Shown here one piece after another: positions 3,142 through 36,287 of a stretch of DNA of 64,000 nt. The stretch is from Escherichia phage iGC_PHA_EC001. Made by a program: the position numbers and the translations under genes. The notes below the pieces were generated by a model, which saw only the letters and a program-made list of their open reading frames with translations, was not told where the DNA came from and did not search any database. How positions within the stretch are numbered: position 1 is the stretch's first letter; each line of letters opens with the position of its first letter. The stretch is taken from the sequence record OR437326.1, one strand, 5' to 3'.

Positions 3142-4083
3142 TTAATAACCTCCTTCAAAAGGCTTAACTACATGTTGATTAGCTTTAAAACGTTCAACAT
3201 AGTCGTTTTCGCCCATGTTTTCATATAGCTTAGTAACAACATAAAAGTTTTCCCAAGCATATTCCCTAAACCAACCACTAGTGATGGATGTGCAGACTTT
3301 AGATAAAGCCATTATAAAACTTTGCTTAGGGGTTGGACCTCCGATCTCTTCACCGAAAGGAATTTGTGAACGTTCCAAAGCCAAAACACACGCTTCTTCA
3401 TAAACACCTAACAGGCGCACATGTTTTGGTTGAGCAAAAAACTTTTCTTTGCTGGTCATAACTTCACTTCCATCTTTCATATAAGATTTATATGCTGGAG
3501 CATCCATTACCGCGATTGCTTCATGGATAGAATCATGATCATAAACATACGGAACCTCATCCCCTTTAAAGAAGTCTTTACTTTTTACGTTTAAGTTCGG
3601 ATGAGAGTAAGTGTATGTTTCTTTCTCACGCAACTCATAAATACTCTTAAGATTTTCTGGGATCTTTGCACCCAGTGACCGCATGAAATGAATATCTTTC
3701 ATAGTTTTAAAGAAGTGAGGACTATCCTTTTTAAAACGATGACTCATTTTAAGAAGGTAGAGCACATCTAAAGGAGCAACAACATGTCCAGCGTAAGTTC
3801 GACGAACATCATCAGAATCTTCACAATAGCTAATCAAAGCTTCTGTGCTATCTCCTTGAGAAGCAATATCGTATTCCAAATGTGCACCAGCTATCATTTT
3901 GACATGGCCTTTGTTTCCTTTACGTTCTACAAGTTCAACAAACTCCTCTTGAGAGAACATTTTTGATAATTCTTCCCACTCTTGTTCTGTACACAGGTAA
4001 TCTAAATCTACACAAGGGCGATACAAGTCTTTTCCCATGTCCATAGCATGAATTTGCAATGCACGGCTACCAATTAACACCAT
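3142..4083 (-). CDS. hypothetical protein with possible Pol-beta-type nucleotidyltransferase fold
   Basis: N-terminal LIGSRALQIH...CVDLDYL fits hG[GS]...DxD minimal nucleotidyltransferase signature; 313 aa; GAGGAG RBS. Confidence 0.45.
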   Translation of the reverse strand: MVLIGSRALQIHAMDMGKDLYRPCVDLDYLCTEQEWEELSKMFSQEEFVELVERKGNKGHVKMIAGAHLEYDIASQGDSTEALISYCEDSDDVRRTYAGHVVAPLDVLYLLKMSHRFKKDSPHFFKTMKDIHFMRSLGAKIPENLKSIYELREKETYTYSHPNLNVKSKDFFKGDEVPYVYDHDSIHEAIAVMDAPAYKSYMKDGSEVMTSKEKFFAQPKHVRLLGVYEEACVLALERSQIPFGEEIGGPTPKQSFIMALSKVCTSITSGWFREYAWENFYVVTKLYENMGENDYVERFKANQHVVKPFEGGY

Positions 4084-4107
4084 AATATTTCTCCTCTATT
4101 GGTTGAT

Positions 4108-4142
4108 AGGTTAAGTTTATCAAGCTTCCAGATTCCTGTCAA
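4108..4142 (-). promoter_or_regulatory. putative sigma70-like promoter for leftward transcription
   Basis: minus strand TTGACA - 17 nt - TAAACT upstream of RBS of gene 3142-4083. Confidence 0.4.
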
Positions 4143-4149
4143 TAAAAAA

Positions 4150-4163
4150 CCCGCCGAAGCGGG
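4150..4163 (-). terminator. GC hairpin CCCGCCGAAGCGGG with flanking A/T runs, putative (possibly bidirectional) terminator
   Basis: palindromic stem, T-run on minus strand, A-run on plus strand. Confidence 0.5.
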
Positions 4164-4173
4164 TTATTATTTA

Positions 4174-4446
4174 CTAACACATTGAGGAAGAAGAGATCCA
4201 AACACCTCTTGTGGTTAAACCATTTTCATCCAACTCTACACCATAATCTTCACAAATGAAATCAATATAGTGATCTGCGGCTGGCGTTCCTGTAGGGTAA
4301 TAAGTTTCTCCGTTACCGTAGTCACCTATCCAAGCTTGTTCCTGAAACTGTTCACAAAGTTCTTCAATTTCCTTACGAAACTTTCTTTGTGCTTGTTCCA
4401 TCTCTTTAACTTTCTTTTTTATCAGCAGTTCGCCTTCAGACTCCAC
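4174..4446 (-). CDS. small acidic protein, paralog family member A (C-terminal W-I-SSSS-M-C)
   Basis: GTG start with AAGGAGAG RBS; C-terminus GVWISSSSMC shared with two neighbouring ORFs. Confidence 0.5.
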   Translation of the reverse strand: MESEGELLIKKKVKEMEQAQRKFRKEIEELCEQFQEQAWIGDYGNGETYYPTGTPAADHYIDFICEDYGVELDENGLTTRGVWISSSSMC

Positions 4447-4455
4447 AATCTCTCC

Positions 4456-4674
4456 TTAACAGCTACTACTGTGCCAAACGCCTTGAGAATTAACGACGAA
4501 ACCATCATCACCTTCACCATAACAAGAAGAGGATTGCCAATCTTCAAAACAGATTGCGTCATCTTCTAAACTAAGACCAAAACCAGCATCTTCAGCTTCT
4601 TTTGTAAGTTCGTCCACTAAAGCCATAATAGCTTGGGCTTTTTCAGTTAATTCTTCAACATTACGATAACTCAT
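4456..4674 (-). CDS. small acidic protein, paralog family member B (two W-x-SSS-C motifs)
   Basis: start at MSYRNVEEL after GAGGAGAAATACTA RBS; internal WQSSSC and C-terminal WHSSSC. Confidence 0.5.
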   Translation of the reverse strand: MSYRNVEELTEKAQAIMALVDELTKEAEDAGFGLSLEDDAICFEDWQSSSCYGEGDDGFVVNSQGVWHSSSC

Positions 4675-4943
4675 TAGTATTTCTCCTCTGGTTGGAAAAC
4701 GGAACGACAGGCCCACATAGAAGCTTCTTTCAACTTAGTCTTTGCTATTGAAATTTGGTCAAGGCGGGTGGATATATTGGTAGACTCTTCCAAATCTTCA
4801 CAATCATCCAGTTCAGTCCACAATTCAGACATTAGAGCATCAAAGATTAAGCCTAATCGAACTTCAGCATCTTTAATAGCATTCACTTTACCAATTTTGT
4901 CATCGGTATGCGGTTTATAACCTTTGATATCTTCGATTCCCAC
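4674..4943 (-). CDS. hypothetical protein
   Basis: ORF track 4674-4982; preferred start GTG after AGGAGGTAAA RBS, which avoids overlap with upstream gene. Confidence 0.4.
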   Translation of the reverse strand: MGIEDIKGYKPHTDDKIGKVNAIKDAEVRLGLIFDALMSELWTELDDCEDLEESTNISTRLDQISIAKTKLKEASMWACRSVFQPEEKY

Positions 4944-5426: not shown

Positions 5427-5917
5427 AAAACCTCCTCAATCTTGTAGTTTGACTCCATCTCCAACACATTTCCACGAACGTCTCTCCGAAGAAAGGCATA
5501 AGCTTTATTAGGTATTGTAGACTCATATTTAACCATATCTGGCACAGCAAAAGATACTACTACTCCTGCTGGGCTTCTGTCAAGAGCCTTATTAATATTT
5601 CTAAGGATATCGTTAGCCAAGATTTCTGCCAATTCTCCAAGAACGGTTTCGGTTATATCTTTATATCCCATTAAGTATTTGTTGATATCTTTCATCTCTG
5701 TATTGTTCAGAGTATAATCCAAAGGATAGAAATTCAAAGCGGAGTCACTTTTATGTGTCCACATGAAATGCACCCGATCCGAGCAGAATCGTAACCCTCT
5801 TTGAAGAATATCTTCTACAACAGGCAGAATTTCTTTTGTCACATCATTAACCATGTTGTAATCTAAGATTTCTGCCAAGTTTGTTCTTTGTTCACCACGT
5901 TTACGTTTAGGAATCAC
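5405..5917 (-). CDS. hypothetical protein
   Basis: GTG start with GAGGG RBS; 170 aa. Confidence 0.45.
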   Translation of the reverse strand: MIPKRKRGEQRTNLAEILDYNMVNDVTKEILPVVEDILQRGLRFCSDRVHFMWTHKSDSALNFYPLDYTLNNTEMKDINKYLMGYKDITETVLGELAEILANDILRNINKALDRSPAGVVVSFAVPDMVKYESTIPNKAYAFLRRDVRGNVLEMESNYKIEEVLWQSSDQ

Positions 5918-6488
5918 TTGTTATTGCCCTCATTACCAAAGGTCGTAGAAAATCGTAAATCTCTTGTTTTGTTTTCCCACGAATGTTTAAACAAGGAACA
6001 TTATTGGCTTTAGCTATCTTCCAAGCCGTAGCTGTTCCACCTTTTGCATCTCCATGTTTATCAGTATTAGCACAAGCCAACAAGAAACATGATGGAGCAG
6101 GATTCTCCAAATCTCTACCTAACACTTGATGCACATTACGTTGGTGCAATTTTCTAGCACCCTGCTTAAGCTTTTCATAGGCTGGGTGAACATCTTTGAT
6201 CCATTGCACAGAGATAGCATAGTTCATTGTATCTGGTTTTGCAAGAACAATAACATCCCCTGGAATCTGATTACCTTTGAAATTTTCCCAAGGAACATAA
6301 ATCTCCTTGTTAGTAGGATTTTCAGACTCTTGGACACCTGTTTCAAAAGCAGAATCACTACCCTCTGCCTTCCCAGACCTTAATTTAAACCCAAGGTTTG
6401 AAAGCCATTTCCCTATGCCTACCATCAAAGCCCACTCTTCTTCGGATATGTCTCTACTTCCAACTCCCGTATAGAACAGTTCTGCCAT
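5907..6488 (-). CDS. DprA/SLOG-like Rossmann-fold protein (putative nucleotide-binding)
   Basis: TGVGSRD ... SGKAEGSDSA resembles DprA/Smf motif (GSR ... SGxAxGID); start at MAELFY after GAGGTG RBS. Confidence 0.4.
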   Translation of the reverse strand: MAELFYTGVGSRDISEEEWALMVGIGKWLSNLGFKLRSGKAEGSDSAFETGVQESENPTNKEIYVPWENFKGNQIPGDVIVLAKPDTMNYAISVQWIKDVHPAYEKLKQGARKLHQRNVHQVLGRDLENPAPSCFLLACANTDKHGDAKGGTATAWKIAKANNVPCLNIRGKTKQEIYDFLRPLVMRAITSDS

Positions 6489-6495
6489 AATCACC

Positions 6496-6804
6496 TCAAC
6501 AAGTAATTTCAAAAGGTGTATACGGTTCCGTATTTCTCATGATCCAAGGACTGCTAGGATTGCTCGGATCATAAGGACCAAAAGGTTTTATGGTCGGTTG
6601 TGTTTCTTTCTTCTGAATCTCTTCAAAAATACGACGAAGTTCAGAATATTCTTGATCCACCATAAGATTCGGTGCATCTGATTCTACAGCTTGCAGGTTA
6701 TCTTCCTTAAGAACAATCTCACGAACAAGATTAACATCTTCTGTTTCTAAGATAACTTCTTTACGGATATTACCTACACTTTGAATAATTGTAATCTTAT
6801 ACAT
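6496..6804 (-). CDS. hypothetical protein
   Basis: RBS GAGGAGG; 102 aa. Confidence 0.5.
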   Translation of the reverse strand: MYKITIIQSVGNIRKEVILETEDVNLVREIVLKEDNLQAVESDAPNLMVDQEYSELRRIFEEIQKKETQPTIKPFGPYDPSNPSSPWIMRNTEPYTPFEITC

Positions 6805-7547
6805 TAATCCTCCTCAAGAGTTGAATAAAATTGAAGACCACCGTCCATATCGAAATAAGCAAATGTTAAGTTATTGTTGAACACAGATCCAGTATCCATA
6901 TAAACACGATTCGCATTGATAATAGGTGTTTTTACATAAGAGTGTCCATGAAACACATAATCCACACCCATCACAACAGGAAGTTTCATTCCCTCTTTAG
7001 CACAGTCTACCATATCTCTGTCCCACATAAGTGCTTCAGCAAAACGGTTTTCCTGTGTTTTTGTCATCTTCGAAATGTATTCTGGAATATCTGTTACAGG
7101 GAGATATTCCAAAGAAGATGGATACCCACCATGAATAAACGCAAGTTTCATGCCTCTGTAGTTAACAATGAGAACAACAGGTAAATCTTCTGTCATCATT
7201 GCTAAGGCTGTAGCTCCTTCTTCACCACATTCTTCAAAGACCGTATATCCTCCATTTTGATACCAACACTCGTAGTAGCTACGATCTCCTTCCAGCATAC
7301 CTTTAATCATCATGTCTTCATGATTACCACGAATAGCGTAGCGATTGTGTTTACGAGTAAATTCTAAAACACAACGAAAGTTTTGCTTTCCACGGTCAGT
7401 AAGATCTCCTAGAGATACAACCACATCTGTATCTCGGATACCTAACTTTGCCTTTCCTTTTTCATACAAATTATAACAACCGTGTAGATCTCCAATTATA
7501 AAAAGATCTTGATCGCTTTTAACAGTAATTTCTCTGTGTATGATCAC
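6804..7547 (-). CDS. Ser/Thr protein phosphatase (calcineurin-like metallophosphoesterase, PP-lambda type)
   Basis: motifs GDLHG, GDLTDRG, GNHE in canonical order; GTG start after GAGGAGG RBS. Confidence 0.75.
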   Translation of the reverse strand: MIIHREITVKSDQDLFIIGDLHGCYNLYEKGKAKLGIRDTDVVVSLGDLTDRGKQNFRCVLEFTRKHNRYAIRGNHEDMMIKGMLEGDRSYYECWYQNGGYTVFEECGEEGATALAMMTEDLPVVLIVNYRGMKLAFIHGGYPSSLEYLPVTDIPEYISKMTKTQENRFAEALMWDRDMVDCAKEGMKLPVVMGVDYVFHGHSYVKTPIINANRVYMDTGSVFNNNLTFAYFDMDGGLQFYSTLEED

Positions 7548-7873
7548 TTATCCTCCTCAAAATCTAAGAAAATAAAAATATTCACCTTTCCTTCAATCTC
7601 TTGTTCTAAAACAAGATCGGCAAATTCTGCATAAGCTTTCTCTTCAACTTTTTCAATATGTTCTGCGGCATCTTTAAAAGGCGTATCCCCATCCACCTTT
7701 ACTAATAAGAAAAGAGATCGCATTTCGACGTTTTTACTGTTACGAGGAAGGAAATCTACAGCTTCAACAATTCTCCAACCCAAATAGCCAGGGGTTTTAT
7801 GAATCTCCCCTAAATACTTTTCTAAGATTTTACGACCCTCGTCGATAAGGGCTTGTTCTGTAGTAATTTCCAT
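7544..7873 (-). CDS. hypothetical protein
   Basis: RBS GAGGAGGAAGGA; 109 aa. Confidence 0.5.
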   Translation of the reverse strand: MEITTEQALIDEGRKILEKYLGEIHKTPGYLGWRIVEAVDFLPRNSKNVEMRSLFLLVKVDGDTPFKDAAEHIEKVEEKAYAEFADLVLEQEIEGKVNIFIFLDFEEDK

Positions 7874-12823: not shown

Positions 12824-13084
12824 TTACTCCGCAATTTGAGCCATGAGATCACGCAGTTCGGTAAAACCGCCTACGTATGTTACCTCCCCGTTCACTTCAG
12901 ACAGAATTTGTGGAAATGTGCGTGGAGGAACTCCGGTAAGATCAACAACTGTTTTAGTCATTGATTCTAAATCATAGTCTTGATCAAGACTTAAATATTC
13001 AAACTGTTTATTGCGCATGGTTAATAGTTGTTTTGACATTTCGCAAAATTGACAGTTAGGTTTACCAAAAATTACAAATTCCAT
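12824..13084 (-). CDS. glutaredoxin/NrdH-like thiol-disulfide oxidoreductase
   Basis: N-terminal FGKPNCQFC CxxC active-site motif in an 86-aa protein; RBS AAGGAGAGG; start overlaps rmlD stop. Confidence 0.6.
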   Translation of the reverse strand: MEFVIFGKPNCQFCEMSKQLLTMRNKQFEYLSLDQDYDLESMTKTVVDLTGVPPRTFPQILSEVNGEVTYVGGFTELRDLMAQIAE

Positions 13085-13926
13085 TACCTCTCCTTATTAA
13101 GTAATACTGCTAAAGACTGTTCAATACCTTTATTTAAATCTGATTTTGTAAGATAGTGACTGGTTACTAGTTGTGACTTCACCGGACGTGCTGCTGGAGC
13201 ATTATAGGTTGAAGCTGATACCGCCGATATCTTAACAGGTTCTGGCATCTGTGTCAAGATCTTTTCCGCAAACTCCGCCCAAGAAATAAGATGGCTTCCT
13301 GCAAAATGGTAAGTCTTAACAGACCTTGACCAACCTGTTTTTAATACTTCAAAAATAGCTTCTGCTAAATCTGGAGCATATGTTGGACAAGAGAACTGAT
13401 CAGCAACAATAATAAAATCACGTTGTCCATCATTATAGCGAGACAACATGGTTTTTAGAAAGTTATTTCCAAATTCGCTATATACCGAGGCTGTTCGAAT
13501 AATATATGTATTTGGGTTAACTCCTCGCACCATTTTTTCACCAAGTTCTTTCGTATACCCATAATTGTTTATTGGGTTAGGTGTAGTATCTTCAAAAATA
13601 GGATGAGAATAATTAAAAATATAATCTGTAGAAATATGCACAAAATCAATTTTAAGTTTGCTGCACACTGCCGCAATATTTGCAGGTCCATACGCATTAA
13701 CAGCCAAAGCAGTAGCAAAATCATGTTCTGCTTTATCTACAGCCGTATAAGCGGCGCAATTAATAACCCCATCTACATAATCTTCAAGAATAGCGTTTCG
13801 CACAGCTTCAAAATTTGTAATATCTACACGTTCTTTAGGATAAGTTAAAGATACATTTGAAGGAGCCACTTTACGTAAAGCTTGTCCCAGTTGTCCATTA
13901 CCGCCCAATACCAGATATGTTAGCAT
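13084..13926 (-). CDS. rmlD: dTDP-4-dehydrorhamnose reductase (RmlD-like)
   Basis: Rossmann LGGNGQLG; INCAAYTAVDKAE and HISTDYIF match RmlD signature blocks; 280 aa. Confidence 0.8.
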   Translation of the reverse strand: MLTYLVLGGNGQLGQALRKVAPSNVSLTYPKERVDITNFEAVRNAILEDYVDGVINCAAYTAVDKAEHDFATALAVNAYGPANIAAVCSKLKIDFVHISTDYIFNYSHPIFEDTTPNPINNYGYTKELGEKMVRGVNPNTYIIRTASVYSEFGNNFLKTMLSRYNDGQRDFIIVADQFSCPTYAPDLAEAIFEVLKTGWSRSVKTYHFAGSHLISWAEFAEKILTQMPEPVKISAVSASTYNAPAARPVKSQLVTSHYLTKSDLNKGIEQSLAVLLNKER

Positions 13927-14486
13927 ACACCCTCGCTACGTAACTGTTGAAAAGATTTAGCCATTGCATCTTTTGTTGATAAGATAGGTTTAAAACCTTC
14001 GTCAAAAATCATATCGAAGCCCCAATCGATCCCTATGTCAGGATCATCCCAACGTAAACTTTGTTCACTAGAAGGGTCGTATGGAGTTGTGCATTTGTAT
14101 TCAAAGATCGCATCCATACTCAAAACTATAAAACCATGTGCCAAACCAGGAGGAAGCCAAAACTGCGTATGGTGTCGTGCACGAAGAACAACACCGTCCC
14201 AAGCACCGTAAGTTGGACTATCTTTACGTAAATCTACAGCGAAATCCAATACTTCCCCACTTACACAACGAACAAGCTTACCTTGCGGATTATTTGTTTG
14301 AAAGTGCATTCCTCGCAAAACACCGAAGTTTGATTTAGACATATTATCTTGAACGAAAGTTTGTTTACCAATGATATCTTCGTATTTTTGTTCATTGTAT
14401 GTTTCTAAAAAGAAACCACGATCATCTTTATAAACGTCTGGTTTGATAATTACCGCACCTTCAATTTTTGTTTTTTCTACTTTCAT
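13920..14486 (-). CDS. rmlC: dTDP-4-dehydrorhamnose 3,5-epimerase (RmlC-like)
   Basis: DDRGFFLETYN, GVLRGMHFQ, KLVRCVSGEVLDFAVDLRKDSPTYG, PPGLAHGFIVLS align by eye with RmlC/RfbC along whole length. Confidence 0.85.
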   Translation of the reverse strand: MKVEKTKIEGAVIIKPDVYKDDRGFFLETYNEQKYEDIIGKQTFVQDNMSKSNFGVLRGMHFQTNNPQGKLVRCVSGEVLDFAVDLRKDSPTYGAWDGVVLRARHHTQFWLPPGLAHGFIVLSMDAIFEYKCTTPYDPSSEQSLRWDDPDIGIDWGFDMIFDEGFKPILSTKDAMAKSFQQLRSEGVC

Positions 14487-14495
14487 TTTCTCTCC

Positions 14496-14822
14496 TTACC
14501 AGACATGTTGAGAAATAATAGTTTCCGTTTTAATGTTATATTTTTCAAGTAGCTCTGCATAGGCTTCTTTTGCATTCTCATTTACTTGCTCAAGATCTAC
14601 AGCTACGCTTCCTTCTCCGCCTTCTAAATAAATACCATATATGCAATAAGACTCATCAGCATCGTAGAAAGGAGAGATGCGACTTAAGTCAAGACCTTCT
14701 TGTAAGAACCAGTTAAAATCTCCGTCAAATTCTTCTTCAATTCTAGGGTCTTCTCCTACAGCCTCTTCCCATTTATTAAAAGGTGCACCCTGTAACATAC
14801 GCCATTCGATATCAATACCCAT
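14496..14822 (-). CDS. hypothetical protein
   Basis: 108-aa ORF in operon-like arrangement. Confidence 0.5.
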   Translation of the reverse strand: MGIDIEWRMLQGAPFNKWEEAVGEDPRIEEEFDGDFNWFLQEGLDLSRISPFYDADESYCIYGIYLEGGEGSVAVDLEQVNENAKEAYAELLEKYNIKTETIISQHVW

Positions 14823-15112: not shown

Positions 15113-15321
15113 TATTCCTCCTTAATTATTTCAAACTTGGCAACACCATTTACAATAATATGACCACAAGACATAACTCCTAGCCAAGGATCGCCGTTTT
15201 TCTTCAGGCGTTTACCGAATACATCACAAAAACCATTCTTCATTTCGGAGGCTTCATAAGAAGCCCCTTTGTCAAAAACGTCTTTGAATGTGTCGATTAT
15301 ACCAACACATCTCAAAATCAT
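15112..15321 (-). CDS. hypothetical protein
   Basis: 69-aa ORF immediately downstream of nrdB. Confidence 0.4.
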   Translation of the reverse strand: MILRCVGIIDTFKDVFDKGASYEASEMKNGFCDVFGKRLKKNGDPWLGVMSCGHIIVNGVAKFEIIKEE

Positions 15322-16406
15322 TAGAAGTCAAGCTCCTCATCATCAGAGAGATCTTTGTTAGCTGAATTCAATTTGTAATTAGTTAACTGAATCTCTTGGG
15401 CTGCTGACTGAATCAAATCAGGATTCAACCATTTTTCCATCCAAGCTAAAGGACTATGTTTAGGTGCTTTAAACTTGGCTTTCATTTTCAATCGACGATA
15501 AATAGGAGCAGCATTGAAATAAACCCACTGTTTAGACAATTCGGCGTTAAGACCTACAATAAAACGACCTTCACTAAACAGGTAGTCACACCACTGTTCC
15601 TCTTGTTCAACAACAGTGTCGAGGATCAAAGTCAACTCTTCAATATTATCTTCGTAAATTTTACGCCAAATTGGGTCATGCATCAATGCATCAATTACAG
15701 CATAATCCATCTTAACATGCAAGATTTCATCTAGCATAATTTTCTGGATCAGTTTACAAGCCCCAACAAACAGTTGTTGTTCTGCCATAGCAAAAGTAGC
15801 AGAGAAGGAAGATATAAACTGAATACCTTCTAATCCAATCAGGGCTACCATCCCTTTAAGAATCAGCAATCGAAGTTCATCGTTAGCTTCAATCAATCCT
15901 AGAGCATACTTATGACCAGCTTCTTCCAACTGACCCATGATATCAGCAATGATACCCATACGATTGAAAATTTTATCATTAATCATAATCTGATTGATGA
16001 CTTCAATTGGATCTGGAGTACATTGACGGATTATTTCAGAATACGTTAACGCATGGAGAACTTCCATTTCACTCTGCTTCATCATCATAGCACAGGCTTC
16101 ATTGTTACTCAAGAATGGAGAGAACAAAGTGATGATTGATTTTGCAAGAGAATCATTTTCCCATTGGAACGATAAGTTTTTAATCATAACATCATAGTTG
16201 TTTTTAGAACAAGCTACGAAATCTTTACGTGTCTGATCCAGATTAACTTCGTTTTCATCCCAATCTTGTGCTTTTTGAAGTTTGTAGAGTTTGTGCATTT
16301 CTGGATAAGTTACGTTAACAGAATCAAAGATCCCTAATTGCTCCCCCAAAAATACTGGATATTTTCCTGTTTTGTAAACTTCATTGTGTAAATTAATTGC
16401 TGCCAT
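15321..16406 (-). CDS. nrdB: ribonucleotide reductase class Ia small (beta) subunit
   Basis: 361 aa with ferritin-like RNR small-subunit architecture; adjacent to nrdA; RBS GAGGAGAA. Confidence 0.8.
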   Translation of the reverse strand: MAAINLHNEVYKTGKYPVFLGEQLGIFDSVNVTYPEMHKLYKLQKAQDWDENEVNLDQTRKDFVACSKNNYDVMIKNLSFQWENDSLAKSIITLFSPFLSNNEACAMMMKQSEMEVLHALTYSEIIRQCTPDPIEVINQIMINDKIFNRMGIIADIMGQLEEAGHKYALGLIEANDELRLLILKGMVALIGLEGIQFISSFSATFAMAEQQLFVGACKLIQKIMLDEILHVKMDYAVIDALMHDPIWRKIYEDNIEELTLILDTVVEQEEQWCDYLFSEGRFIVGLNAELSKQWVYFNAAPIYRRLKMKAKFKAPKHSPLAWMEKWLNPDLIQSAAQEIQLTNYKLNSANKDLSDDEELDF

Positions 16407-16449: not shown

Positions 16450-17106
16450 TTAGCCTCGAAATACTGTTTTTGTTTCCGCCAGGTGCCAATAGAAATCAGC
16501 TTTGTTTACAAGAGTGTTGTACACCTCTGGATAAAAATGTTCTTCCTCTTTGTAACGATCTGCTGTTTCCCTGATTGACTTAGCTTTATCCTTTAGCCAA
16601 GCGAAGTGTGCCTCTTCCTCTGTAGAGAAGTAGCCTAAATGCTTTCCTTTACTCCCAGAAGCTTTGGCATAAATCTTACCATCTTTCCTAACATGTGCTC
16701 CTAGTAAGTATTTTCTTTCATACCTCTTAGCATAACTTAAGAGTGTATTTATATAAGGAGGAACAAACCTACAATATTCAGGACAATAAACAGTATTTCC
16801 TTCAAGAACAAGATCTTTATCTAAAACAAAGCCTTCCACATTGTGTTCTTGATACCAGTTATCAAAGTTTGAAAAGGTGAACCAAGCATCACACACAGTA
16901 ACATCTTTATAACCTGGTCTAATGTTTTCCATACGATATGCACGATTAAACATGCCTTTCCAAGCTGCATAGGAAGGGTCTATGAATGTATTAACCCTTT
17001 TCCCATTGATAACACCACCTTCCCACAATCTACGTTCAACATCCACAATCAAGGGGATTTCTCCCCTCTCTGTGAGAACGGTAACTTTACGTTTACCCTT
17101 CTTCAT
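16450..17106 (-). CDS. putative free-standing homing endonuclease (AP2-like DNA-binding domain)
   Basis: sits between nrdA and nrdB, a classic homing-endonuclease site in phages; C-terminal GKHLGYFSTEEEAHFAW resembles AP2 domains of phage HNH/AP2 endonucleases; catalytic motif not confidently seen. Confidence 0.45.
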   Translation of the reverse strand: MKKGKRKVTVLTERGEIPLIVDVERRLWEGGVINGKRVNTFIDPSYAAWKGMFNRAYRMENIRPGYKDVTVCDAWFTFSNFDNWYQEHNVEGFVLDKDLVLEGNTVYCPEYCRFVPPYINTLLSYAKRYERKYLLGAHVRKDGKIYAKASGSKGKHLGYFSTEEEAHFAWLKDKAKSIRETADRYKEEEHFYPEVYNTLVNKADFYWHLAETKTVFRG

Positions 17107-17117: not shown

Positions 17118-19361
17118 CTACATTTTACAGGCACTACACCCTTCGTCTTCAGAATCTTCTTGTGCTAAAGAATCTGCTGATTTTGTTCTACTGTTAAGGT
17201 AATACAATGACTTACCACCCAGTCTAGCAAAGTTCAAAATAAATTTCATCTCTTCTTTAACTGATAAACGTCCCCCTACCAATTTAGAATAATCTAGCCA
17301 AGAATCACAAGAAATTCCTTGGTCCGTAAACTTGGTAAAGATACCATACATTTCTGCAAGATCTTTAGCCGGAGTATCCCAGGCAGACTGGTAAAACATT
17401 TTCAGTTTTTCGTAGTCTGGAACAATAAATAATACACTACCTTTCTGACTTTGTTTATACATAATAGTATCACGAACAGGATACAGAGAGTTAGTAGTAT
17501 TGCTTACCAAACTGCTGGACTCATTAGGTGCAATAGCAGCCAAGACACTGTTACGGATACCACCTTGTTCAATGATTTCAGCACGTAAGCCTTCCCAGTC
17601 CATTTTAAGATCAAAATTACCGATACTATCTACTGTTTTAGCATAAGTGTCAATTGGTAGCCAACCTTGAGGCCATTTGGTCTTATCGATCCATTCTGCA
17701 TTACCTTTTTCCTTAGCCAGACGCAGAGAGGCTTTTGCCAACCAAAAGTAATGACGTTCTGCAAGTTCATGCATTAATTTTTTAGCATAAGCATCTGAAT
17801 AATTTACAAAATTACTTGCCAAGTAATGCGCTAAGTTTGTAATGCCTACACCAATAGATCTACGTGCTTTAGCAGTTATTTCGTTATGTTTAAATGGATA
17901 ATCCATTGTTTCAATAACGTTGTCAATTGTCAATACAGTGTAATATGCAACATCCTCATATTCTTCAGGTAAGACACGACCAGCAACAATAGAAGATAAG
18001 AAGCATAAAGCCAATTCTTGATCTTCTGTATTCTCACCAGTAAAGAGATCCGGCATACTGTGGAAAGCTTTAGTTGGTAAGAAGATCTCTTGACACAGGT
18101 TTGATTGATACACCGTATCCAGGAAAGGTGTATGGTTGTTAACGTTGTCAGCAAAGAACATGTAAATACGTCCTGTTTCTGCACGTTGAACAATAATCTC
18201 TGTCAGAAGATCACGAGCCTTAACAAATTTTTTCTTAATGCGACGACGGCTTACTTTGTCATAAACTGCATCAAACTCTTCTTCACTTTTATACAAAGCT
18301 TCATAAAGTTCAGGAGCATCATCACAACTAACTAACATCCAATCTTCGTTTTTTGCTGCTCGACGCAAGAACGAACGGTTAACAACAATAGAATAATCTA
18401 GTTTGTCTACTCGTTTATCTATAGGTGTTGTTGGATTCTTCAGTCGAATTAGATCGTCGAAGTCTGGTTCAAGTATGGTAAAGGTAACTGTAGCACTACC
18501 TCCACGACTTGCTTGCTTCGAAGCTCCAACACTATCTTCCATCCATTTCAGATACGGAAGAAGACCACCATGAATAATACGATTATTCTTAACACCTTGA
18601 CCTGTGGCACGAGTTTGAAGATTAACACCAATACCTGCGTTATTCAACGTATACTCATGAGCTAAGTAATTAGCAATGGCTAAAGATTCTGCCGTATCGT
18701 CTGCACGGAATAAGCAACAAGACGCACTTCCTTTGATTGGAGTTCGTAGAGTTGTCAGATACGGCGATGGCAGATTAATCTTAAGATCGCTAACATAAGT
18801 ATAAAGTTTTTTAATATCTTCTATACGGCGTTCTTTTGGTTGGATCTCCATAACCTTCATTGCGATACCAATGAAAAGAAACTGTGGAGACTCATGCACC
18901 ACATCGTTTACTGCATCTCGAATAAGATATTTATCTACCATCTGACGTAAAACAGAATAACCATAAGTTAGATTTTTATTATGCTTTACAATCTTACCGA
19001 TTTCTTTGATCTCTTCATCAGTATAATCCATTTTATCCCAATGTCCACGTTCTACCATATCATGATAAAAGGTATTCAGTGAAGGGATACTGTGGTATCC
19101 CCCATGAGCCTGTTTGTAAATCATACCCAGAAGAAGTCTTCCTGCCATATCACTGTAAGCTTGTGTTTTCTTGTCAATACACGCTGCAATCATTGCTTTA
19201 TGCAGATCACGTGTAGACACACCGTCATAACACCGCTTCACAGCTTCTAATTCAATTTCAGACCAGTTTAGTTTACCTGCTGCAAATTCAGACCACTTGC
19301 GAAGTTTTTCTGGATTAAACTCCTCTGTCTTACCGTTAGATTTAGTTACAAAACGAATCAA
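17118..19361 (-). CDS. nrdA: ribonucleotide reductase class Ia large (alpha) subunit
   Basis: 747 aa; N-terminal ATP-cone-like region, conserved Cys-containing blocks and C-terminal Cys pair (CSACKM); TTG start after GGGAGGAG RBS. Confidence 0.9.
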   Translation of the reverse strand: MIRFVTKSNGKTEEFNPEKLRKWSEFAAGKLNWSEIELEAVKRCYDGVSTRDLHKAMIAACIDKKTQAYSDMAGRLLLGMIYKQAHGGYHSIPSLNTFYHDMVERGHWDKMDYTDEEIKEIGKIVKHNKNLTYGYSVLRQMVDKYLIRDAVNDVVHESPQFLFIGIAMKVMEIQPKERRIEDIKKLYTYVSDLKINLPSPYLTTLRTPIKGSASCCLFRADDTAESLAIANYLAHEYTLNNAGIGVNLQTRATGQGVKNNRIIHGGLLPYLKWMEDSVGASKQASRGGSATVTFTILEPDFDDLIRLKNPTTPIDKRVDKLDYSIVVNRSFLRRAAKNEDWMLVSCDDAPELYEALYKSEEEFDAVYDKVSRRRIKKKFVKARDLLTEIIVQRAETGRIYMFFADNVNNHTPFLDTVYQSNLCQEIFLPTKAFHSMPDLFTGENTEDQELALCFLSSIVAGRVLPEEYEDVAYYTVLTIDNVIETMDYPFKHNEITAKARRSIGVGITNLAHYLASNFVNYSDAYAKKLMHELAERHYFWLAKASLRLAKEKGNAEWIDKTKWPQGWLPIDTYAKTVDSIGNFDLKMDWEGLRAEIIEQGGIRNSVLAAIAPNESSSLVSNTTNSLYPVRDTIMYKQSQKGSVLFIVPDYEKLKMFYQSAWDTPAKDLAEMYGIFTKFTDQGISCDSWLDYSKLVGGRLSVKEEMKFILNFARLGGKSLYYLNSRTKSADSLAQEDSEDEGCSACKM

Positions 19362-20137: not shown

Positions 20138-21136
20138 TCACCATTTAGTATGATTTGTTAAAAGTTGACGATGTTGAATCCAGCCTTTGAAATTGCCAGA
20201 CCAAAACTTACCATTACGATCTACATGGGTAATACCTGGTTCCCAAGAGTTAAAATCCCAAGGAGCATTGATAAACAAATCTTCAAAACAGTTCTCTCCA
20301 TATTGTTCGCATGTTTCTTGCATTGGAGTGGCTTGATGTTCAAACGGAGAAGCATGAACCTTGCGCCCAGTCAGCAAGCGACCATAGATATCTAAAGCTT
20401 TATCTTTAGTTGCATTTAAACGACGATAGCTAACCTGTGCACAACACGAAGCTGAAATAGCTTTGGCTTCTTCCAAAGTAAGCACAACGACTTCTCCAGA
20501 TTCATCTTGAACGTAGTATCCACCAAAAACAAAATGATCGTCACCTTCTGTGCCAATAGTATCATAGAAATGGTCTACATAAGGTGTGTGCCATTGCCCT
20601 GGTTTCAGCACTTCTGGTGTAGATCCTTCATACTCTTTGTGCATCTCTTTAGCCAAAGCTTCGATAGTAGGATCGGCTTCTTTGTCATCACGTAGCCACC
20701 AGAAATTTTCATATTCTGTTGCTGTCAGAACTGTTTTAATTCGTTGGAAAGGTTCCAGAAGACGGTTTGCAACTTGTTTATGGTACCCTGCCAAAGAGAA
20801 TTCTTCTGCAAAACGTGCTGCACTAAGCGCGGCAAGATCCCACCACTCTTGAGCAGTATAACCTGCATCAATAAGAGCGTCATGATCAACACCTTTATCC
20901 TGCATACCAGGCTGGTTAGCCCCAAAACGATAAGGACGAGCAGGTTGATTTCGCACCATTTCAATCAGTGTTTTAACAGGTATAGCACGGCTAGAAGCAG
21001 CATTACGACTGAACAGGCGGTGAGTCATCAATTCTGAATGAATAATACGTGGATATTCTAGTTCAAAAGTTACAATCTCTTTTCCGTCTTCAGTGATGGA
21101 ATGCGCAATAATACTAGCCGAAATCTGTTTTGTCAT
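20138..21136 (-). CDS. thyX: flavin-dependent thymidylate synthase-like protein (ThyX family, variant motif)
   Basis: THRLFSRNAASSR resembles ThyX RHR-x7-S-x-R motif (first Arg replaced by Thr); HASPFEHQ resembles HAQWE block; 332 aa, longer than typical ThyX. Confidence 0.6.
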   Translation of the reverse strand: MTKQISASIIAHSITEDGKEIVTFELEYPRIIHSELMTHRLFSRNAASSRAIPVKTLIEMVRNQPARPYRFGANQPGMQDKGVDHDALIDAGYTAQEWWDLAALSAARFAEEFSLAGYHKQVANRLLEPFQRIKTVLTATEYENFWWLRDDKEADPTIEALAKEMHKEYEGSTPEVLKPGQWHTPYVDHFYDTIGTEGDDHFVFGGYYVQDESGEVVVLTLEEAKAISASCCAQVSYRRLNATKDKALDIYGRLLTGRKVHASPFEHQATPMQETCEQYGENCFEDLFINAPWDFNSWEPGITHVDRNGKFWSGNFKGWIQHRQLLTNHTKW

Positions 21137-21145: not shown

Positions 21146-21754
21146 TTAGTTTTTAAAATTGTTCAAAGTGTTAAAAACATCCAAACATGTTAGCCACTGA
21201 TCTTCTAAACCTGTGATCACAACATTTGGTTTTTTCTTTAGTTCTTCTAGATGGTTATCTTTATAAGGCGTATTAAAATATATTTTAACCACTTCATCTG
21301 GAAAATATAGTAGGTTATCAGCCCTGTCATCTATTGCTATATCACAAGGCAATAAGTATTTTTCTTTCGTAGCAAAAAAGCCGTTACCAGATCCTTTGCT
21401 AAAATCAATCGTATCTAATGTTCTTAAAACATGCTTATGTTTAGAACTTAAGTGACCACCTTTTGTCACACTTGCGATCAAAAGATTGCTACCTTTCCTT
21501 GAAACATACTTTAAGAAATCTGGCATACCTGGAACAAAACCCATTGTATCATAGAGATGAGGATTATCCAGAAATCCGTAAGGATCTATATTGAACTCCT
21601 CCCTGAAACCAGGAAAGTAGTTGGTAAGATCATAGTCTGCATTTTTTGTGAATGTGTCTATCTTAACACCAAGTCCACTAATCTTATTCAACCATTCTAA
21701 CCAAGCAACATCTAATGGAGCCACAACTAAATCCCAATCACATACTATCTGCAT
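21146..21754 (-). CDS. HAD-superfamily 5'(3')-deoxyribonucleotidase-like protein
   Basis: N-terminal MQIVCDWDLVV fits HAD motif I DxDxV; size and context with nucleotide metabolism genes. Confidence 0.55.
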   Translation of the reverse strand: MQIVCDWDLVVAPLDVAWLEWLNKISGLGVKIDTFTKNADYDLTNYFPGFREEFNIDPYGFLDNPHLYDTMGFVPGMPDFLKYVSRKGSNLLIASVTKGGHLSSKHKHVLRTLDTIDFSKGSGNGFFATKEKYLLPCDIAIDDRADNLLYFPDEVVKIYFNTPYKDNHLEELKKKPNVVITGLEDQWLTCLDVFNTLNNFKN

Positions 21755-32851: not shown

Positions 32852-33012
32852 GTTTTACCCTTATCAACCAAGGTCTTTGCTACAGCATACTCCTTCCCAT
32901 TAACAAGGAAATAATAAACGATAAAAGATTTCCCGATTGTTACTGTCTTAGTAACCTCTACACGTTTAACACCTTGCATGTATTTTGCCTTACCGGAATA
33001 GAGTAAAATCAT
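32830..33012 (-). CDS. hypothetical protein
   Basis: 60-aa ORF. Confidence 0.35.
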   Translation of the reverse strand: MILLYSGKAKYMQGVKRVEVTKTVTIGKSFIVYYFLVNGKEYAVAKTLVDKGKTWKVEAL

Positions 33013-33290
33013 TTTGCATTCCTCTTGTTGTTGATAACATCCATAGCAGTATATGGTTTATTAGTGCCATGATACTCCAGAATCATTGGAGAGCCTTCTT
33101 GCACTACTTCAAAGATACCATAAACAGAACTTTCAGCAAATACCATTTGCTTCGTGCCTTCATCGTTTACAACGAGAGAAAACTTCTTGCCTGTCCCGTT
33201 GAGGATCTCGTATTTCTTGCCAGCAGTGAATAATCCAGAGTACCACTCATTATCTGTTGCTTTTACACACTTCAGGAAAGTCTTGATCAT
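33009..33290 (-). CDS. hypothetical protein
   Basis: 93-aa ORF. Confidence 0.45.
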   Translation of the reverse strand: MIKTFLKCVKATDNEWYSGLFTAGKKYEILNGTGKKFSLVVNDEGTKQMVFAESSVYGIFEVVQEGSPMILEYHGTNKPYTAMDVINNKRNAK

Positions 33291-33640
33291 TTCTTTTTGC
33301 TCCTCTTTTTAGATTTCTCATACAAACCTAACACAGCCGCTTCTTTTGCACAAGTAGGAACTGAAGTCATCCCTCTTCTTTTTGCTTCTGGTAGTTGCAA
33401 AGTCCATATTCCCCACCAATAAATTTGGTCTGCCGTGAGTGGTTCAGCCATTGGATCTGCCTCCTGCTCCTCAAGACGTTGCAACGCTTCTTCAATCTTC
33501 TCGATTGGTGTGTCAAAGACGAATGCCTCCGTATCAAATTTATCTTTCTTAGGAACTGATTTGGCTACTTTGAGAACCTCGTTTTTCGGTTTCTTAGTAA
33601 CGTTCTTTGGCTTTGATAACTTCTTCGGTGTTTTCGCCAC
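33287..33640 (-). CDS. lysine-rich basic protein (possible nucleic-acid-binding)
   Basis: N-terminal AKTPKKLSKPKNVTKKPKNEVLKVAKSVPKK and C-terminal KSKKRSKKK. Confidence 0.45.
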   Translation of the reverse strand: MAKTPKKLSKPKNVTKKPKNEVLKVAKSVPKKDKFDTEAFVFDTPIEKIEEALQRLEEQEADPMAEPLTADQIYWWGIWTLQLPEAKRRGMTSVPTCAKEAAVLGLYEKSKKRSKKK

Positions 33641-33833
33641 TTACTACCTCCATACGATCTAAAAAGTCATTCACAAATCTCCAGTAACGTTGACCTGTTC
33701 TAAGATCTTCATAGATAACCACAGGATCAAACACTTTAGATATTCCGGCAGGTTTTGGAAATTCCACTACCGTATATAAACCACCTTTTGCTACACAAGA
33801 ATAGGTTACGCCTGTAATTGGATAGTTGCTCAT
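33594..33833 (-). CDS. hypothetical protein
   Basis: 79-aa ORF. Confidence 0.4.
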   Translation of the reverse strand: MSNYPITGVTYSCVAKGGLYTVVEFPKPAGISKVFDPVVIYEDLRTGQRYWRFVNDFLDRMEVVSGENTEEVIKAKERY

Positions 33834-34024
33834 TTCTTTACGTACTCCATGATTGGGGTATGGTCGCCAGTAAGCGTAACACGGCTGTAGGACACATCTT
33901 GTGTCCTCAGTGTATCAATCCACTCTAAGAAGTGTTCTTTCGCTTCTGTGTAGTTCTGTGTGCCTTTAACAACGTGTATACCATCTAGAGTTACACGGAA
34001 TACCATTTGAATAACGTCTTTCAT
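33830..34024 (-). CDS. hypothetical protein
   Basis: 64-aa ORF. Confidence 0.4.
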   Translation of the reverse strand: MKDVIQMVFRVTLDGIHVVKGTQNYTEAKEHFLEWIDTLRTQDVSYSRVTLTGDHTPIMEYVKK

Positions 34025-34137
34025 TTCTTACCTCCTTTGTTGTCAAAATAACTTACCAGAACATCGTGAACCACACACATGGCAAAAATCAGAACAATTG
34101 TTGTCAGGACCGGATTCTCACTAATTAGTGCTATCAT
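34021..34137 (-). CDS. small hydrophobic (membrane) protein
   Basis: start at MIALISENPVLTTIVLIFAMCVV after GGAGGTGG RBS; track ORF begins earlier. Confidence 0.35.
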   Translation of the reverse strand: MIALISENPVLTTIVLIFAMCVVHDVLVSYFDNKGGKK

Positions 34138-34444
34138 CTTTAACCACCTCCAATTGCCTTTCGAGTTTGACTTTGTTTGAGAACTGATAATGACACAACT
34201 TACATTGCATGTCAACAATCTGATCGTGATTTAACCCTACAATTTTAACTTCCTTTGCACCATCCCATTCCAAATACTCAAAGCCATCCAAATGAGTACT
34301 CTTGTCCAACAAAAATGCTATCTGCTGCCATTCGATCTGAATGTCATTTAAATGATATGCTGCACAGAAGATATCCTCGTAGTAAAAGACGATCATTGTC
34401 ATTGCTTCGTCCAGCACAACTACCTCTTGTCTTGTAAATCTCAT
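34121..34444 (-). CDS. hypothetical protein (first gene of leftward block)
   Basis: RBS TAGGAGG; 107 aa. Confidence 0.5.
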   Translation of the reverse strand: MRFTRQEVVVLDEAMTMIVFYYEDIFCAAYHLNDIQIEWQQIAFLLDKSTHLDGFEYLEWDGAKEVKIVGLNHDQIVDMQCKLCHYQFSNKVKLERQLEVVKDDSTN

Positions 34445-34687
34445 TCTAGCCTCCTAAACGCGTCTCTGACGCACTTTTTATATATAAGATGATAAATCAC
34501 CTTACCTAGTAAGTGAACTTGCTCTACGAGCCTCTTATGAAGCTTATGTTATAGGCTATACTATTGCTACCTGTTTAAGCAAGGTTTTTGCACACAGAAA
34601 ATAATTTTAATAAAACTCTTGACTTTTGTGTTCGAAGTATGCTACCCTAGAAATCTATTAACGAGCGCAGCGAGTTAAGGTTTTAGG

Positions 34688-34905
34688 TTGTTGATGTAGT
34701 ACTCTGTACTCAAGTACTGTACTCCGTACTAGATTAATAATTATTAAATATTAATAATAAATAATTATTAGATCTAACAAACAGGTACAGTGTATCAGAA
34801 CTGGTACGTACAGATCAACTTCTATCAATTAAAAATAAAATAATAAATTATTATAAATAATACTTGATCTATAGATCAGTATGAAGTACAGTACGGAACA
34901 TCTTA
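34688..34905. repeat. strand-switch region with clustered GTAC(T) repeats, AT-rich palindromes (TAATAATTATTA x2) and GATCTATAGATC palindrome
   Basis: five GTACT within 34697-34730 (gtagtactctgtactcaagtactgtactccgtact), further GTAC copies at about 34784-34815 and 34884-34895; no ORFs; lies between divergent gene blocks. Confidence 0.6.
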
Positions 34906-34923
34906 ACAAGATGGAGGTGTGCA

Positions 34924-35109
34924 ATGATTAGCGAGAATCCGTGCAAATGGCATCATGTACCTATTAAAGATTGTATGTCTTGTAATCCACGTTCTATTTA
35001 TAACATTGCATCTTATGACGATGACATTGTGTTAGACGATGATGAAGGCTGGGAGGATTTAGATTGGACTGGTTATGAAACCAAAAAGGATAAAATTATT
35101 CCTAGTTGA
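34924..35109 (+). CDS. hypothetical small Cys-containing protein
   Basis: RBS GGAGGTGTGCA; 61 aa. Confidence 0.4.
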   Translation: MISENPCKWHHVPIKDCMSCNPRSIYNIASYDDDIVLDDDEGWEDLDWTGYETKKDKIIPS

Positions 35110-35146
35110 CTTAAGATATCCTTCGTGCTAAACTAGAAGTGAGGAG

Positions 35147-35398
35147 ATGCCGATCACTCCCCATTTGGGGTTCGAAGGATATATGCAAAATAGTTTTTAT
35201 TTTAGGTGCCGTGCTTGTAATAGGCATTTGACAAACCACTCCAGACGTGATAAAAATGGAGTCATCAAGGAATCAGACCTCTGTTCTATTTGCACAGGTT
35301 TGGCTTTTGATGATAGTCTCGAAAGGGTTTATCAGCATCAATGTATAACAGACGTTCTCGTGTCAAACTTGGTAGAGGACGAACAACTAACAGATTAG
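35147..35398 (+). CDS. hypothetical small zinc-finger-like protein
   Basis: CRACNRH ... CSICTG Cys pairs; RBS GAGGAG. Confidence 0.4.
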   Translation: MPITPHLGFEGYMQNSFYFRCRACNRHLTNHSRRDKNGVIKESDLCSICTGLAFDDSLERVYQHQCITDVLVSNLVEDEQLTD

Positions 35399-35406
35399 GA
35401 GGAACA

Positions 35407-35655
35407 ATGTCTCTATTAGAAAAACACGTGTTTGAAGATGGTAACGGCAATGCAGTTTTTCTTTTCCATCCAGAAAAATACACATCTGAAAACAATGGTA
35501 CAACTTCTATTGTAATCACTAAAGATGTTAAAGTTATTGATTTCTTGGCTCTGATGCGAGAGATGGATCTTGAAATTAACACTTTTAACGCAGAAGCTTT
35601 GGTTGTTGCTCTTCTGGAAAAGAAAGATAGTGAAGAAGTAGCAGAATATGCTTAA
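35407..35655 (+). CDS. hypothetical protein
   Basis: start at MSLLEKHVF after AGGAGGAACA RBS (track ORF 35341-35655). Confidence 0.4.
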   Translation: MSLLEKHVFEDGNGNAVFLFHPEKYTSENNGTTSIVITKDVKVIDFLALMREMDLEINTFNAEALVVALLEKKDSEEVAEYA

Positions 35656-35662
35656 ATAACTA

Positions 35663-35693
35663 TTGACAAACGTATCCTTCATATGTTAGGATA
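35663..35693 (+). promoter_or_regulatory. sigma70-like promoter (AACTATTGACAA family, copy 1)
   Basis: TTGACA at 35663-35668, TAGGAT 18 nt downstream; same -35 context repeated at 36250 and 37212. Confidence 0.45.
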
Positions 35694-35901
35694 CGTTCAT
35701 CAAGTGTGGTAACAGGGTCGTTGACTTTTGTTAAGAGGGGCTTGCACTGCGGTAGTGTTAGAGACTACTTCTTCAGAGGTTAGCTACCAAAGAGGAAAAG
35801 GAATAGTCTCGGCTCAAGAACTTTTACGCTGAAAGTTGGGCTTGGTCTTAGAGAATGTAGCGGTTCTCTACAATCGTCAGCGTCTCTGTTACCACATTTA
35901 T

Positions 35902-35976: not shown

Positions 35977-35978
35977 AA

Positions 35979-36280: not shown

Positions 36281-36287
36281 TAAGTAT

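Follow-up and report, generated by a model that had tools for sequence, protein, structure and literature searches.

Why would a virulent coliphage encode the last two steps of deoxythymidine diphosphate (dTDP)-L-rhamnose synthesis without the first two? The question is raised by a 64,000-nucleotide stretch of DNA (hereafter the window) from Escherichia phage iGC_PHA_EC001 (OR437326.1), in which an initial annotation, made from the sequence alone, described an rmlC-rmlD-glutaredoxin operon lacking rmlA and rmlB. The window belongs to Phapecoctavirus (phAPEC8-like, subfamily Stephanstirmvirinae) and is 98–99% identical to GenBank records. In a 24-kb comparison it was 97–99% identical to several records and an exact match to none, and the rml region shares 98.3–99.4% DNA identity over 1.9 kb with many GenBank Phapecoctavirus genomes. 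The rmlC and rmlD genes are ordinary and have already been discussed in the literature; together with the glutaredoxin gene (grx) they carry these annotations in GenBank relatives, amounting to more than 100 phage genomes. PMC7552041 and PMC8594841 mention a four-gene dTDP-rhamnose cassette in phAPEC8/phi92-like phages, and PMC10269720 describes ESCO37 as lacking the thymidylyltransferase and the dehydratase. What we add is the selective and repeated loss of rmlB-rmlA (rmlBA), an explanation of this loss by the enterobacterial common antigen (ECA) pathway of the host, the separate standing of grx, and a distant glycosyltransferase (GT) module as the probable partner of the pathway. On balance, we favour the reading that this virulent Phapecoctavirus has working RmlC and RmlD enzymes that are fed by the host and provide dTDP-L-rhamnose to a phage GT module.

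The three leftward open reading frames (ORFs) proved to have the coordinates, strand and motifs first assigned to them, with a 7-nt overlap between the rmlC 3' end and the rmlD start and a 1-nt overlap (ATGA) between rmlD and grx. Profile searches bore out both enzyme identities. RmlC scored 225.3 bits against the TIGR01221 equivalog model (cut-off 155.75), spanning residues 2–181 of 188, and 224.6 bits against PF00908 (7.8e-67). Its top PDB matches are bona fide RmlC enzymes (~192 bits), whereas the mono-epimerases NovW, EvaD and ChmJ reached 92–105 bits, and in a HMMER alignment with the Salmonella enzyme (PDB 1dzr) the phage residues H61, K70, Y130 and D173 align with H63, K73, Y133 and D170. 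On this indirect measure, the phage protein is a putative double epimerase acting on both C3 and C5. RmlD matched PF04321 (1.7e-73) and exceeded the TIGR01214 equivalog cut-off (238.1 vs 224.05 bits), scoring 119 bits, below the threshold of 308, against the enterobacterial-type model NF007440. Its top PDB matches are RmlD of Bacillus anthracis (3sc6, 153 bits) and the Clostridium acetobutylicum protein 1vl0. The GGNGQLG motif (residues 8–14), T100 within STDY and Y122xxxK126 are kept in all seven phage lineages examined. Neither protein fell into an unrelated cupin or short-chain dehydrogenase/reductase (SDR) family, and no catalytic residue was missing. RmlD belongs to a deep phage-only clade, many members of which lie on contigs of ~150 kb, and the best cellular RmlD proteins are 40–44% identical to it. 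Compared with the E. coli host proteins, amino-acid identity is 48% for RmlC/RfbC and 33% for RmlD/RfbD. RmlC and RmlD are accordingly predicted, from their sequences, to be working enzymes.

As the initial annotation had claimed, rmlA, rmlB and GT genes are missing from the window: tblastn detected no RmlA, RmlB or GT homologue in the 64 kb. Likewise, for the two-gene phage Mt1B1_P17, no rmlA or rmlB is annotated in the 150 kb that were read of its 151.2-kb record. The idea of a special two-step module did not survive the comparison with relatives; instead, the locus is a deletion variant of the known Stephanstirmvirinae rmlB-A-C-D cassette. phAPEC8 carries rmlB-rmlA-rmlC-rmlD-grx in the slot that harbours rmlC-rmlD (rmlCD) in the window, with RmlB and RmlA scoring 431 bits (TIGR01181) and 464 bits (TIGR01207), and the four-gene cassette is also found in phi92, phiWec179 and the divergent metagenomic phages L020/L021 and L023. 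In phAPEC8 as in the window, the slot lies between nrdB plus small ORFs and grx-lysozyme-PhoH, and RmlC, RmlD and glutaredoxin share 98–100% amino-acid identity; the difference is that phAPEC8 and the phi92-like phages carry rmlB and rmlA, exactly the genes missing here. The junction reads TGGTAAGGAGAGAAAATG in the window and TGGTAAGGAGAACTGATG (rmlB)...TTAGCGGAGAGAAAATG (rmlC) in phAPEC8. The missing segment of 1.88 kb corresponds exactly to rmlB-rmlA and is flanked by two GGAGA ribosome-binding sequences. Because the breakpoint falls inside this repeat, rmlC now stands behind the stop codon of the upstream gene with its ribosome-binding site intact. The junction is identical in eight of eight two-gene genomes examined, which suggests a single origin of the two-gene form within the window-type clade. 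ESCO37, nepoznato, Mt1B1_P17, ZCKP1 and other two-gene Phapecoctavirus phages share architecture and junction with the window, whose RmlD differs by the substitutions I28T and A140T, absent from the 12 relatives compared. As a scan of IMG/VR for RmlC relatives returned two loci only, GenBank phage records were used for comparisons instead. In tblastn searches, RmlC matched at least 95% in 64 records and RmlA in 48, including about 5–6 of the phiWec type, so that roughly one third of Phapecoctavirus records appear to be two-gene.

Loss of rmlBA function was not confined to this clade. It was removed in at least three separate events, with rmlCD kept each time. The first is the window type with its GGAGA junction. 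The second affects a lineage of Klebsiella phages (KP2025, FKP3, phi1_175008, KP13-26 and the metagenomic phage L022) with the order hyp-rmlC-rmlD-grx. The rmlC and rmlD of this lineage (KP2025/L022) are 89% and 83% identical to those of the four-gene phage L020, compared to 60% and 57% for the window, and its junction, TTTGGTAAGAGGAGTAAGAGTG, differs from that of the window. The third is found in Phapecoctavirus DIJ07P2, where an internal deletion of ~811 bp at a TTGCAC microhomology (~2650–2658) removes RmlA residues 1–239 and the RmlB C-terminus and leaves rmlC, rmlD and grx 98–100% intact; the record is an unannotated assembly, and the deletion could be an assembly artefact. Conversely, none of the genomes examined keeps rmlBA without rmlCD.

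One explanation for such a pattern is that rmlCD has been functionless since the loss of rmlBA and simply has yet to degrade. In line with decay, the ratio of nonsynonymous to synonymous polymorphism (pN/pS) of rmlD is 0.20 in two-gene genomes vs 0.08 in four-gene genomes, indicating a constraint weaker than that on rmlC, and the window RmlD carries its two private substitutions. For rmlC, however, pN/pS is 0.03 in the two-gene genomes (pS 0.093, 9% synonymous diversity) and 0.02 in the four-gene genomes. Every ORF is intact across 15 genomes, rmlCD is free of stop codons and frameshifts in eight window-type genomes, KP2025, L022 and DIJ07P2, and the catalytic motifs are kept in every lineage. 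Moreover, the Klebsiella two-gene lineage has kept both genes while diverging by ~40% from the window. Purifying selection together with intact reading frames and motifs argues that rmlCD is maintained by selection, and the notion of a decaying remnant, to which we give hardly any credence, is largely refuted.

The locus is highly mosaic. Between phAPEC8 and phiWec179, RmlB and RmlA are 94% and 97% identical at the amino-acid level, whereas RmlC and RmlD reach 63% and 65% and the flanking genes 56–76%; between phAPEC8 and phi92, the 108-aa ORF upstream of the cassette is 92% identical and the Rml proteins only 53–71%. GC content at third codon positions (GC3) of phAPEC8-type rmlBA is 0.40, similar to phiWec-type genomes, compared to 0.22–0.29 in the flanks. 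These comparisons suggest that phages exchange rmlBA and rmlCD independently of each other, each pair as a module. Given that the four-gene order is common to five divergent lineages and that linked diversity is lower at the two-gene junction, deletion is the most parsimonious direction for the window type. We also considered a recent capture of the phage rmlBA from host rffGH and rejected it: the gene order fits, but amino-acid identity is 52–69%, similar to that with rfbBA.

If rmlBA can be lost with rmlCD retained, the substrate of RmlC should come from elsewhere. With phage rmlBA DNA as query, a match was found in 5,423 of 5,426 complete E. coli genomes. This near-universal match is the rffG-rffH pair of the ECA cluster, adjoining rffC and rffA; in about half of the genomes, rfbB/rfbA provides an additional locus. 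The ECA pathway produces dTDP-4-keto-6-deoxy-D-glucose in the host. Taken together, practically every host makes the intermediate, which renders rmlBA expendable and lends support to the dependence on host dTDP-4-keto-6-deoxyglucose that had first been proposed. The reciprocal count is less direct. Phage rmlCD matched 18 of the 5,426 genomes in blastn, weakly, and is too divergent for counting host rmlCD; taking as a rough proxy the single rmlBA-like locus in about half of the genomes, a large number of E. coli strains are likely to have no rmlCD. During infection, host RffH and RffG, plus RfbA and RfbB where present, would make dTDP-4-keto-6-deoxy-D-glucose, phage RmlC would epimerise it at C3 and C5, and RmlD would reduce C4 with NAD(P)H to yield dTDP-L-rhamnose, which strains without rmlCD would not otherwise make.

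A nucleotide sugar calls for a transferase. The statement that no obvious GT is present in the window held. Near-identical genomes do have GTs: Mt1B1_P17 carries four adjacent GT genes, gp102–gp105, at 45.0–48.2 kb, ~70 kb from rml and beyond the portion that the window covers. Just upstream of these GTs (Mt1B1_P17 33000–48500) lies a Ter-type cluster comprising TerC, a TelA-like protein, vWA-TerF, TerD, a ComF-like phosphoribosyltransferase and a HAD hydrolase, and the same Ter-then-GT neighbourhood occurs in the metagenomic phage L029. The distributions of GTs and RmlC are equal, with 64 records each at 95% or more and the same phiWec, phi92-like, Tr1 and Klebsiella groups. According to the phi92 record notes, the genes on either side of the GT cluster have PVP-SE1 gp006 and gp008 as homologues. 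Judged by these notes only, the GT cluster, like the rml cassette, seems to have been inserted in comparison with PVP-SE1. A confident structure model places gp105 among GT4-type GT-B enzymes, and gp103 has a generic GT2 fold; searches of gp103 and gp105 sequences against the PDB returned no match.

The GT module, in the form [gp102-like]-[GT-A]-[GT-B], recurs in unrelated settings. In the distant metagenomic phage L030, a dTDP-glucose-4,6-dehydratase-like SDR (TIGR01181, 171 bits, below cut-off) is embedded in the module and represents the sole physical link found between the GTs and 6-deoxyhexose nucleotide synthesis. On contig AJHJ01000054.1 of Serratia sp. M24T3 (5589–7670), a trio of gp102-, gp103- and gp104-like genes with 36–51% amino-acid identity sits in an HK97-like prophage, between holin/endolysin/spanin genes and HNH-terS-terL, indicating that the module is portable across unrelated phage types. 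In the Klebsiella lineage, a reduced GT set seems to accompany the two-gene rml form. Klebsiella phage FKP3 has a single GT-B (3990–4930) that is readable only with two frameshifts, being either a pseudogene or a sequencing error, and the gp103-like GT-A and the second GT-B are absent. Co-loss of rml and GTs was considered as a test of their connection and found uninformative; FKP3 with its reduced GT set keeps rmlD at 97.9%.

We consider it most likely that the phage GTs (gp102–gp105 in Mt1B1_P17) would use dTDP-L-rhamnose to build a rhamnose-containing glycan. As to the acceptor, our first guess would be a virion or other phage-specified protein and our second a host lipid-linked glycan, the former being preferred because the GTs are soluble and export genes are absent. 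More specifically, Stephanstirmvirinae may make a rhamnose glycoconjugate of their own from split rmlCD (with or without rmlBA) and a distant GT module, with a phage-specific acceptor, namely virion proteins or, less likely, DNA. This more detailed proposal is tentative, and we would sooner bet against it than for it. If true, it would provide a first case of glycosylation in a coliphage virion or of rhamnose on phage DNA, and the two-gene phages would represent a minimal form found in nature, dependent on host ECA enzymes for the first two steps.

The second acceptor leads to a different function, in which RmlCD, with or without the GTs, would drain the ECA (dTDP-Fuc4NAc) precursor or alter a lipid-linked or lipopolysaccharide (LPS)-core glycan. 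An altered host glycan would mask receptors, resulting in superinfection exclusion or in progeny freed from debris. The RmlC substrate is indeed the branch-point intermediate of ECA synthesis, with rffG, rffH, rffC and rffA adjacent in E. coli, and the nearest GT folds include enzymes with undecaprenyl-linked or LPS acceptors (PglA/WlaC, WaaG, WbnH, TarP/TarS and RmlT). Furthermore, surface glycans serve as receptors of relatives (PMC8594841), and the Serratia trio occupies a moron-like position between lysis genes and terminase. On the other hand, genes for a flippase, polymerase, ligase or polyprenyl-phosphate transferase are missing from the annotations, PMC11990801 argues that a lytic phage would probably gain nothing from attempting to remodel the surface completely where glycans are abundant, and a drain would leave the ancestral rmlBA unexplained, as these genes would feed ECA precursors. 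Manipulation of the host envelope is thus unlikely, if still the most credible competitor of a glycan made for the phage itself.

A third possible acceptor is DNA, with the phage GTs transferring rhamnose to a modified base for evasion of nucleases, comparable to glucosyl-hydroxymethylcytosine in T4 and arabinosyl-5-hydroxycytosine in RB69. DNA glycosylation has been proposed before (PMC7552041), and a DNA modification role was also entertained in the initial annotation. The setting of the genes fits such a role, as rml is located in an nrd/thyX nucleotide-metabolism block and the GT cluster adjoins primase-helicase and DNA polymerase genes; in addition, gp103 has short and weak matches to phrog_842, a beta-glucosyl-HMC-alpha-glucosyltransferase (E 7.6e-6), and to Pfam TAGT (E 1e-3, below the gathering score). 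Several observations disfavour it. PMC8594841 reports Vequintavirinae and their relatives, among them phi92-like phages that carry this cassette, to be "exceptionally susceptible" to restriction-modification systems despite their "putative dTDP glycosylation machinery". The characterised sugar modifications of DNA all need a hydroxylated pyrimidine, whose source is either a ThyA homologue or a cytosine methyltransferase acting together with a TET/5mYOX enzyme. The putative thymidylate synthase of the window is of the ThyX type only (PF02511), and the annotation of Mt1B1_P17, whose unannotated ORFs were not all profile-scanned, contains neither a ThyA-like nor a TET-like gene. The folds of gp103 and gp105 are generic GT2 and GT4 folds, with TAGT proteins appearing at ranks 39 and 45 only in a BFVD fold search of the GTs, and the Serratia prophage with the same GT trio has no DNA-metabolism genes in its 16.8-kb contig. 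We therefore regard hypermodification of DNA as improbable.

The genomic surroundings of rmlCD invite yet another interpretation, and they also decide the status of the glutaredoxin. nrdB is the first gene of a closely spaced leftward run to which rmlCD belongs. Between the HNH gene and nrdB, at 16442–16429(-), lies a strong hairpin that resembles a terminator, GGGGCTTCGGCCCC, with a T-run behind it, and no such signal was detected from nrdB through grx, so that rmlCD is probably co-transcribed with nrdB and the small ORFs as one predicted transcription unit; grx, adjoining rmlD, is probably co-transcribed with it. The glutaredoxin itself is supported by PF00462 (38 bits vs a gathering score of 22.9) and by the thioredoxin domain of phrog_22. 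It had been counted as part of the rmlC-rmlD unit, which is contradicted by its occurrence elsewhere: the rml-less Vequintavirinae phage A7_1 shows the order nrdA, nrdB, small ORF, grx, hypothetical ORF, peptidoglycan hydrolase, PhoH, and the phi92 record notes, which liken grx to PVP-SE1 gp141 and nrdB to gp139, indicate the same nrdB-x-grx-lysozyme-PhoH block in PVP-SE1. As grx accompanies nrdB in a phage without rml, it is not part of the sugar pathway, and the glutaredoxin would rather serve the neighbouring ribonucleotide reductase (RNR). The rml cassette is an insertion into this conserved RNR-glutaredoxin block, between a backbone ORF and grx. The backbone ORF encodes a conserved acidic protein of 108 aa and precedes rmlB in four-gene and rmlC in two-gene genomes in every genome examined. 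In tblastn it was found in 132 records of the same phage set and, as a weak 32% match, in Salmonella phage SSBI34. Because a homologue exists outside the rml-bearing set, the idea that the ORF forms a fifth part of the cassette was rejected in favour of a probable backbone gene.

Insertion into the nrdAB-grx block, near thyX and a 5'-nucleotidase-like gene, would also suit a role in thymidine-nucleotide economy that involves no glycan. dTDP-L-rhamnose is reportedly an allosteric feedback inhibitor of RmlA. Its synthesis could thereby shut down host RmlA/RffH and spare dTTP for an AT-rich genome, and the GC content of the window, 37–42%, as well as the constant retention of rmlCD upon loss of rmlBA fit this proposal. 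However, the ancestral cassette includes rmlA, which consumes dTTP, and dTDP is recycled after glycosyl transfer, limiting any saving to the pool size. The shared distribution of rml and GTs and the dehydratase-like gene embedded in the module of L030 point to real glycan synthesis instead. We deem dTTP sparing very improbable, even more so than DNA modification.

Returning to the favoured reading, host-fed RmlCD supplying a phage GT module, several points weigh against it. The GT cluster of iGC_PHA_EC001 itself, which would be located outside the window, we infer from relatives. What connects rml and GTs is their matching occurrence among members of one subfamily, which are not independent of each other phylogenetically, and one SDR embedded in the module of a distant phage, and the GT folds reveal neither donor nor acceptor. 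RmlD clears its equivalog cut-off by 14 bits only, and sequence cannot separate an L-rhamnose-forming from a 6-deoxy-L-talose-forming reductase. K-12 hosts already make dTDP-rhamnose, and a benefit is not evident there. Regarding the history of the locus, rmlBA may have been imported into the phAPEC8 clade, with the two-gene form being ancestral there; the phiWec-like GC3 of phAPEC8-type rmlBA makes the direction of change in this clade uncertain and weakens a deletion-only story. Finally, literature searches yielded no paper on how rml or the GTs function in these phages.

The features of the locus and its neighbourhood are compiled in the following table.

Table 1. Genes and junction in the rml region of the window (positions count from its first nucleotide).
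Feature	Position	Strand	Details
grx, glutaredoxin	12824..13084	-	86 aa; PF00462, CQFC at 11-14
rmlD, dTDP-4-dehydrorhamnose reductase	13084..13926	-	280 aa; PF04321, TIGR01214
rmlC, dTDP-4-dehydrorhamnose 3,5-epimerase	13920..14486	-	188 aa; PF00908, TIGR01221
Junction lacking rmlB-rmlA	14487..14498	-	stop codon of upstream ORF, then GGAGAGAAA (ribosome-binding site), then rmlC ATG
Conserved acidic 108-aa ORF, upstream neighbour of rml cassette	14496..14822	-	phrog_15453
nrdB, class Ia RNR small subunit	15321..16406	-	PF00268 6.3e-33
HNH endonuclease, between nrdB and nrdA	16450-17106	-	218 aa; phrog_953 6.6e-57
nrdA, class Ia RNR large subunit	17118..19361	-	747 aa; syntenic with annotated nrdA in phAPEC8 (L001), L002 and L005
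thyX-type putative thymidylate synthase	20138-21136	-	332 aa; PF02511
NT5C-like pyrimidine 5'-deoxynucleotidase, adjoining the ThyX gene	21146-21754	-	26 bits

Further observations concern the neighbouring genes and the records used. The ThyX-like protein is unusually long and divergent, its PF02511 match amounting to 33 bits and covering residues 22–174 only. The HNH gene is missing in nepoznato and ukendt, in which nrdA directly adjoins nrdB, and phi92 has an HNH gene at the same site; the metagenomic relative L022 instead carries an intein with a LAGLIDADG domain inside nrdA. RNR genes thus seem to be repeatedly targeted by homing elements. Compared with Mt1B1_P17, which is 99.4% identical in the rml region, positions 1–1500 of the window show only 83–88% patchy identity, and the final 1.5 kb (62500–64000) is without any match. 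The window ends are probably variable or mosaic segments, the far end lying in a tail-fibre region. Records labelled as Campylobacter phages (A145, A150, B15, C3 and A110a), Acinetobacter phage vB_AbaM_ABPW7 and Pseudomonas phage PsgM04F are 94–99% identical to E. coli Phapecoctavirus/Justusliebigvirus, and their stated hosts look doubtful; perhaps these odd labels reflect contaminating coliphages or misattribution.

Our analysis narrows the question to why therapeutically used phAPEC8- and phi92-like coliphages keep a dTDP-rhamnose pathway and several GTs. A product that ends up on virions could affect the pharmacokinetics of therapeutic phages and how the immune system recognises them, and one that changes the host surface would be relevant to superinfection and host range. 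Two-gene phages, as naturally occurring variants, combined with E. coli rffGH/rfbBA mutants, offer a clean genetic handle on these alternatives.

Set against known systems, the phage enzymes share folds, motifs and catalytic residues with bacterial RmlC and RmlD (Salmonella RfbC, 1dzr; RmlD, 1kbz; B. anthracis, 3sc6), whereas the phage genes are divergent and are not embedded in a polysaccharide locus. As virus-encoded decoration, the glycosylation of mycobacteriophage virions is comparable. The UDP-arabinose genes and GTs of RB69 and DLP3 (PMC13326640) and T4 glucosylation likewise represent virulent phages that combine nucleotide-sugar enzymes with GTs. In contrast to these, the sugar is dTDP-linked here, GT and sugar genes are ~70 kb apart, and no ThyA-type hydroxypyrimidine synthase was found. 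The rhamnose pathways of giant viruses, reviewed in PMC9614988, have in common with the phage system the sugar-nucleotide enzymes, soluble GT-A and GT-B transferases and the absence of membrane export machinery. Unlike them, the phage pathway is dTDP-based and, in the two-gene variant, host-dependent, with glycosylation of coliphage virions as a candidate outcome.

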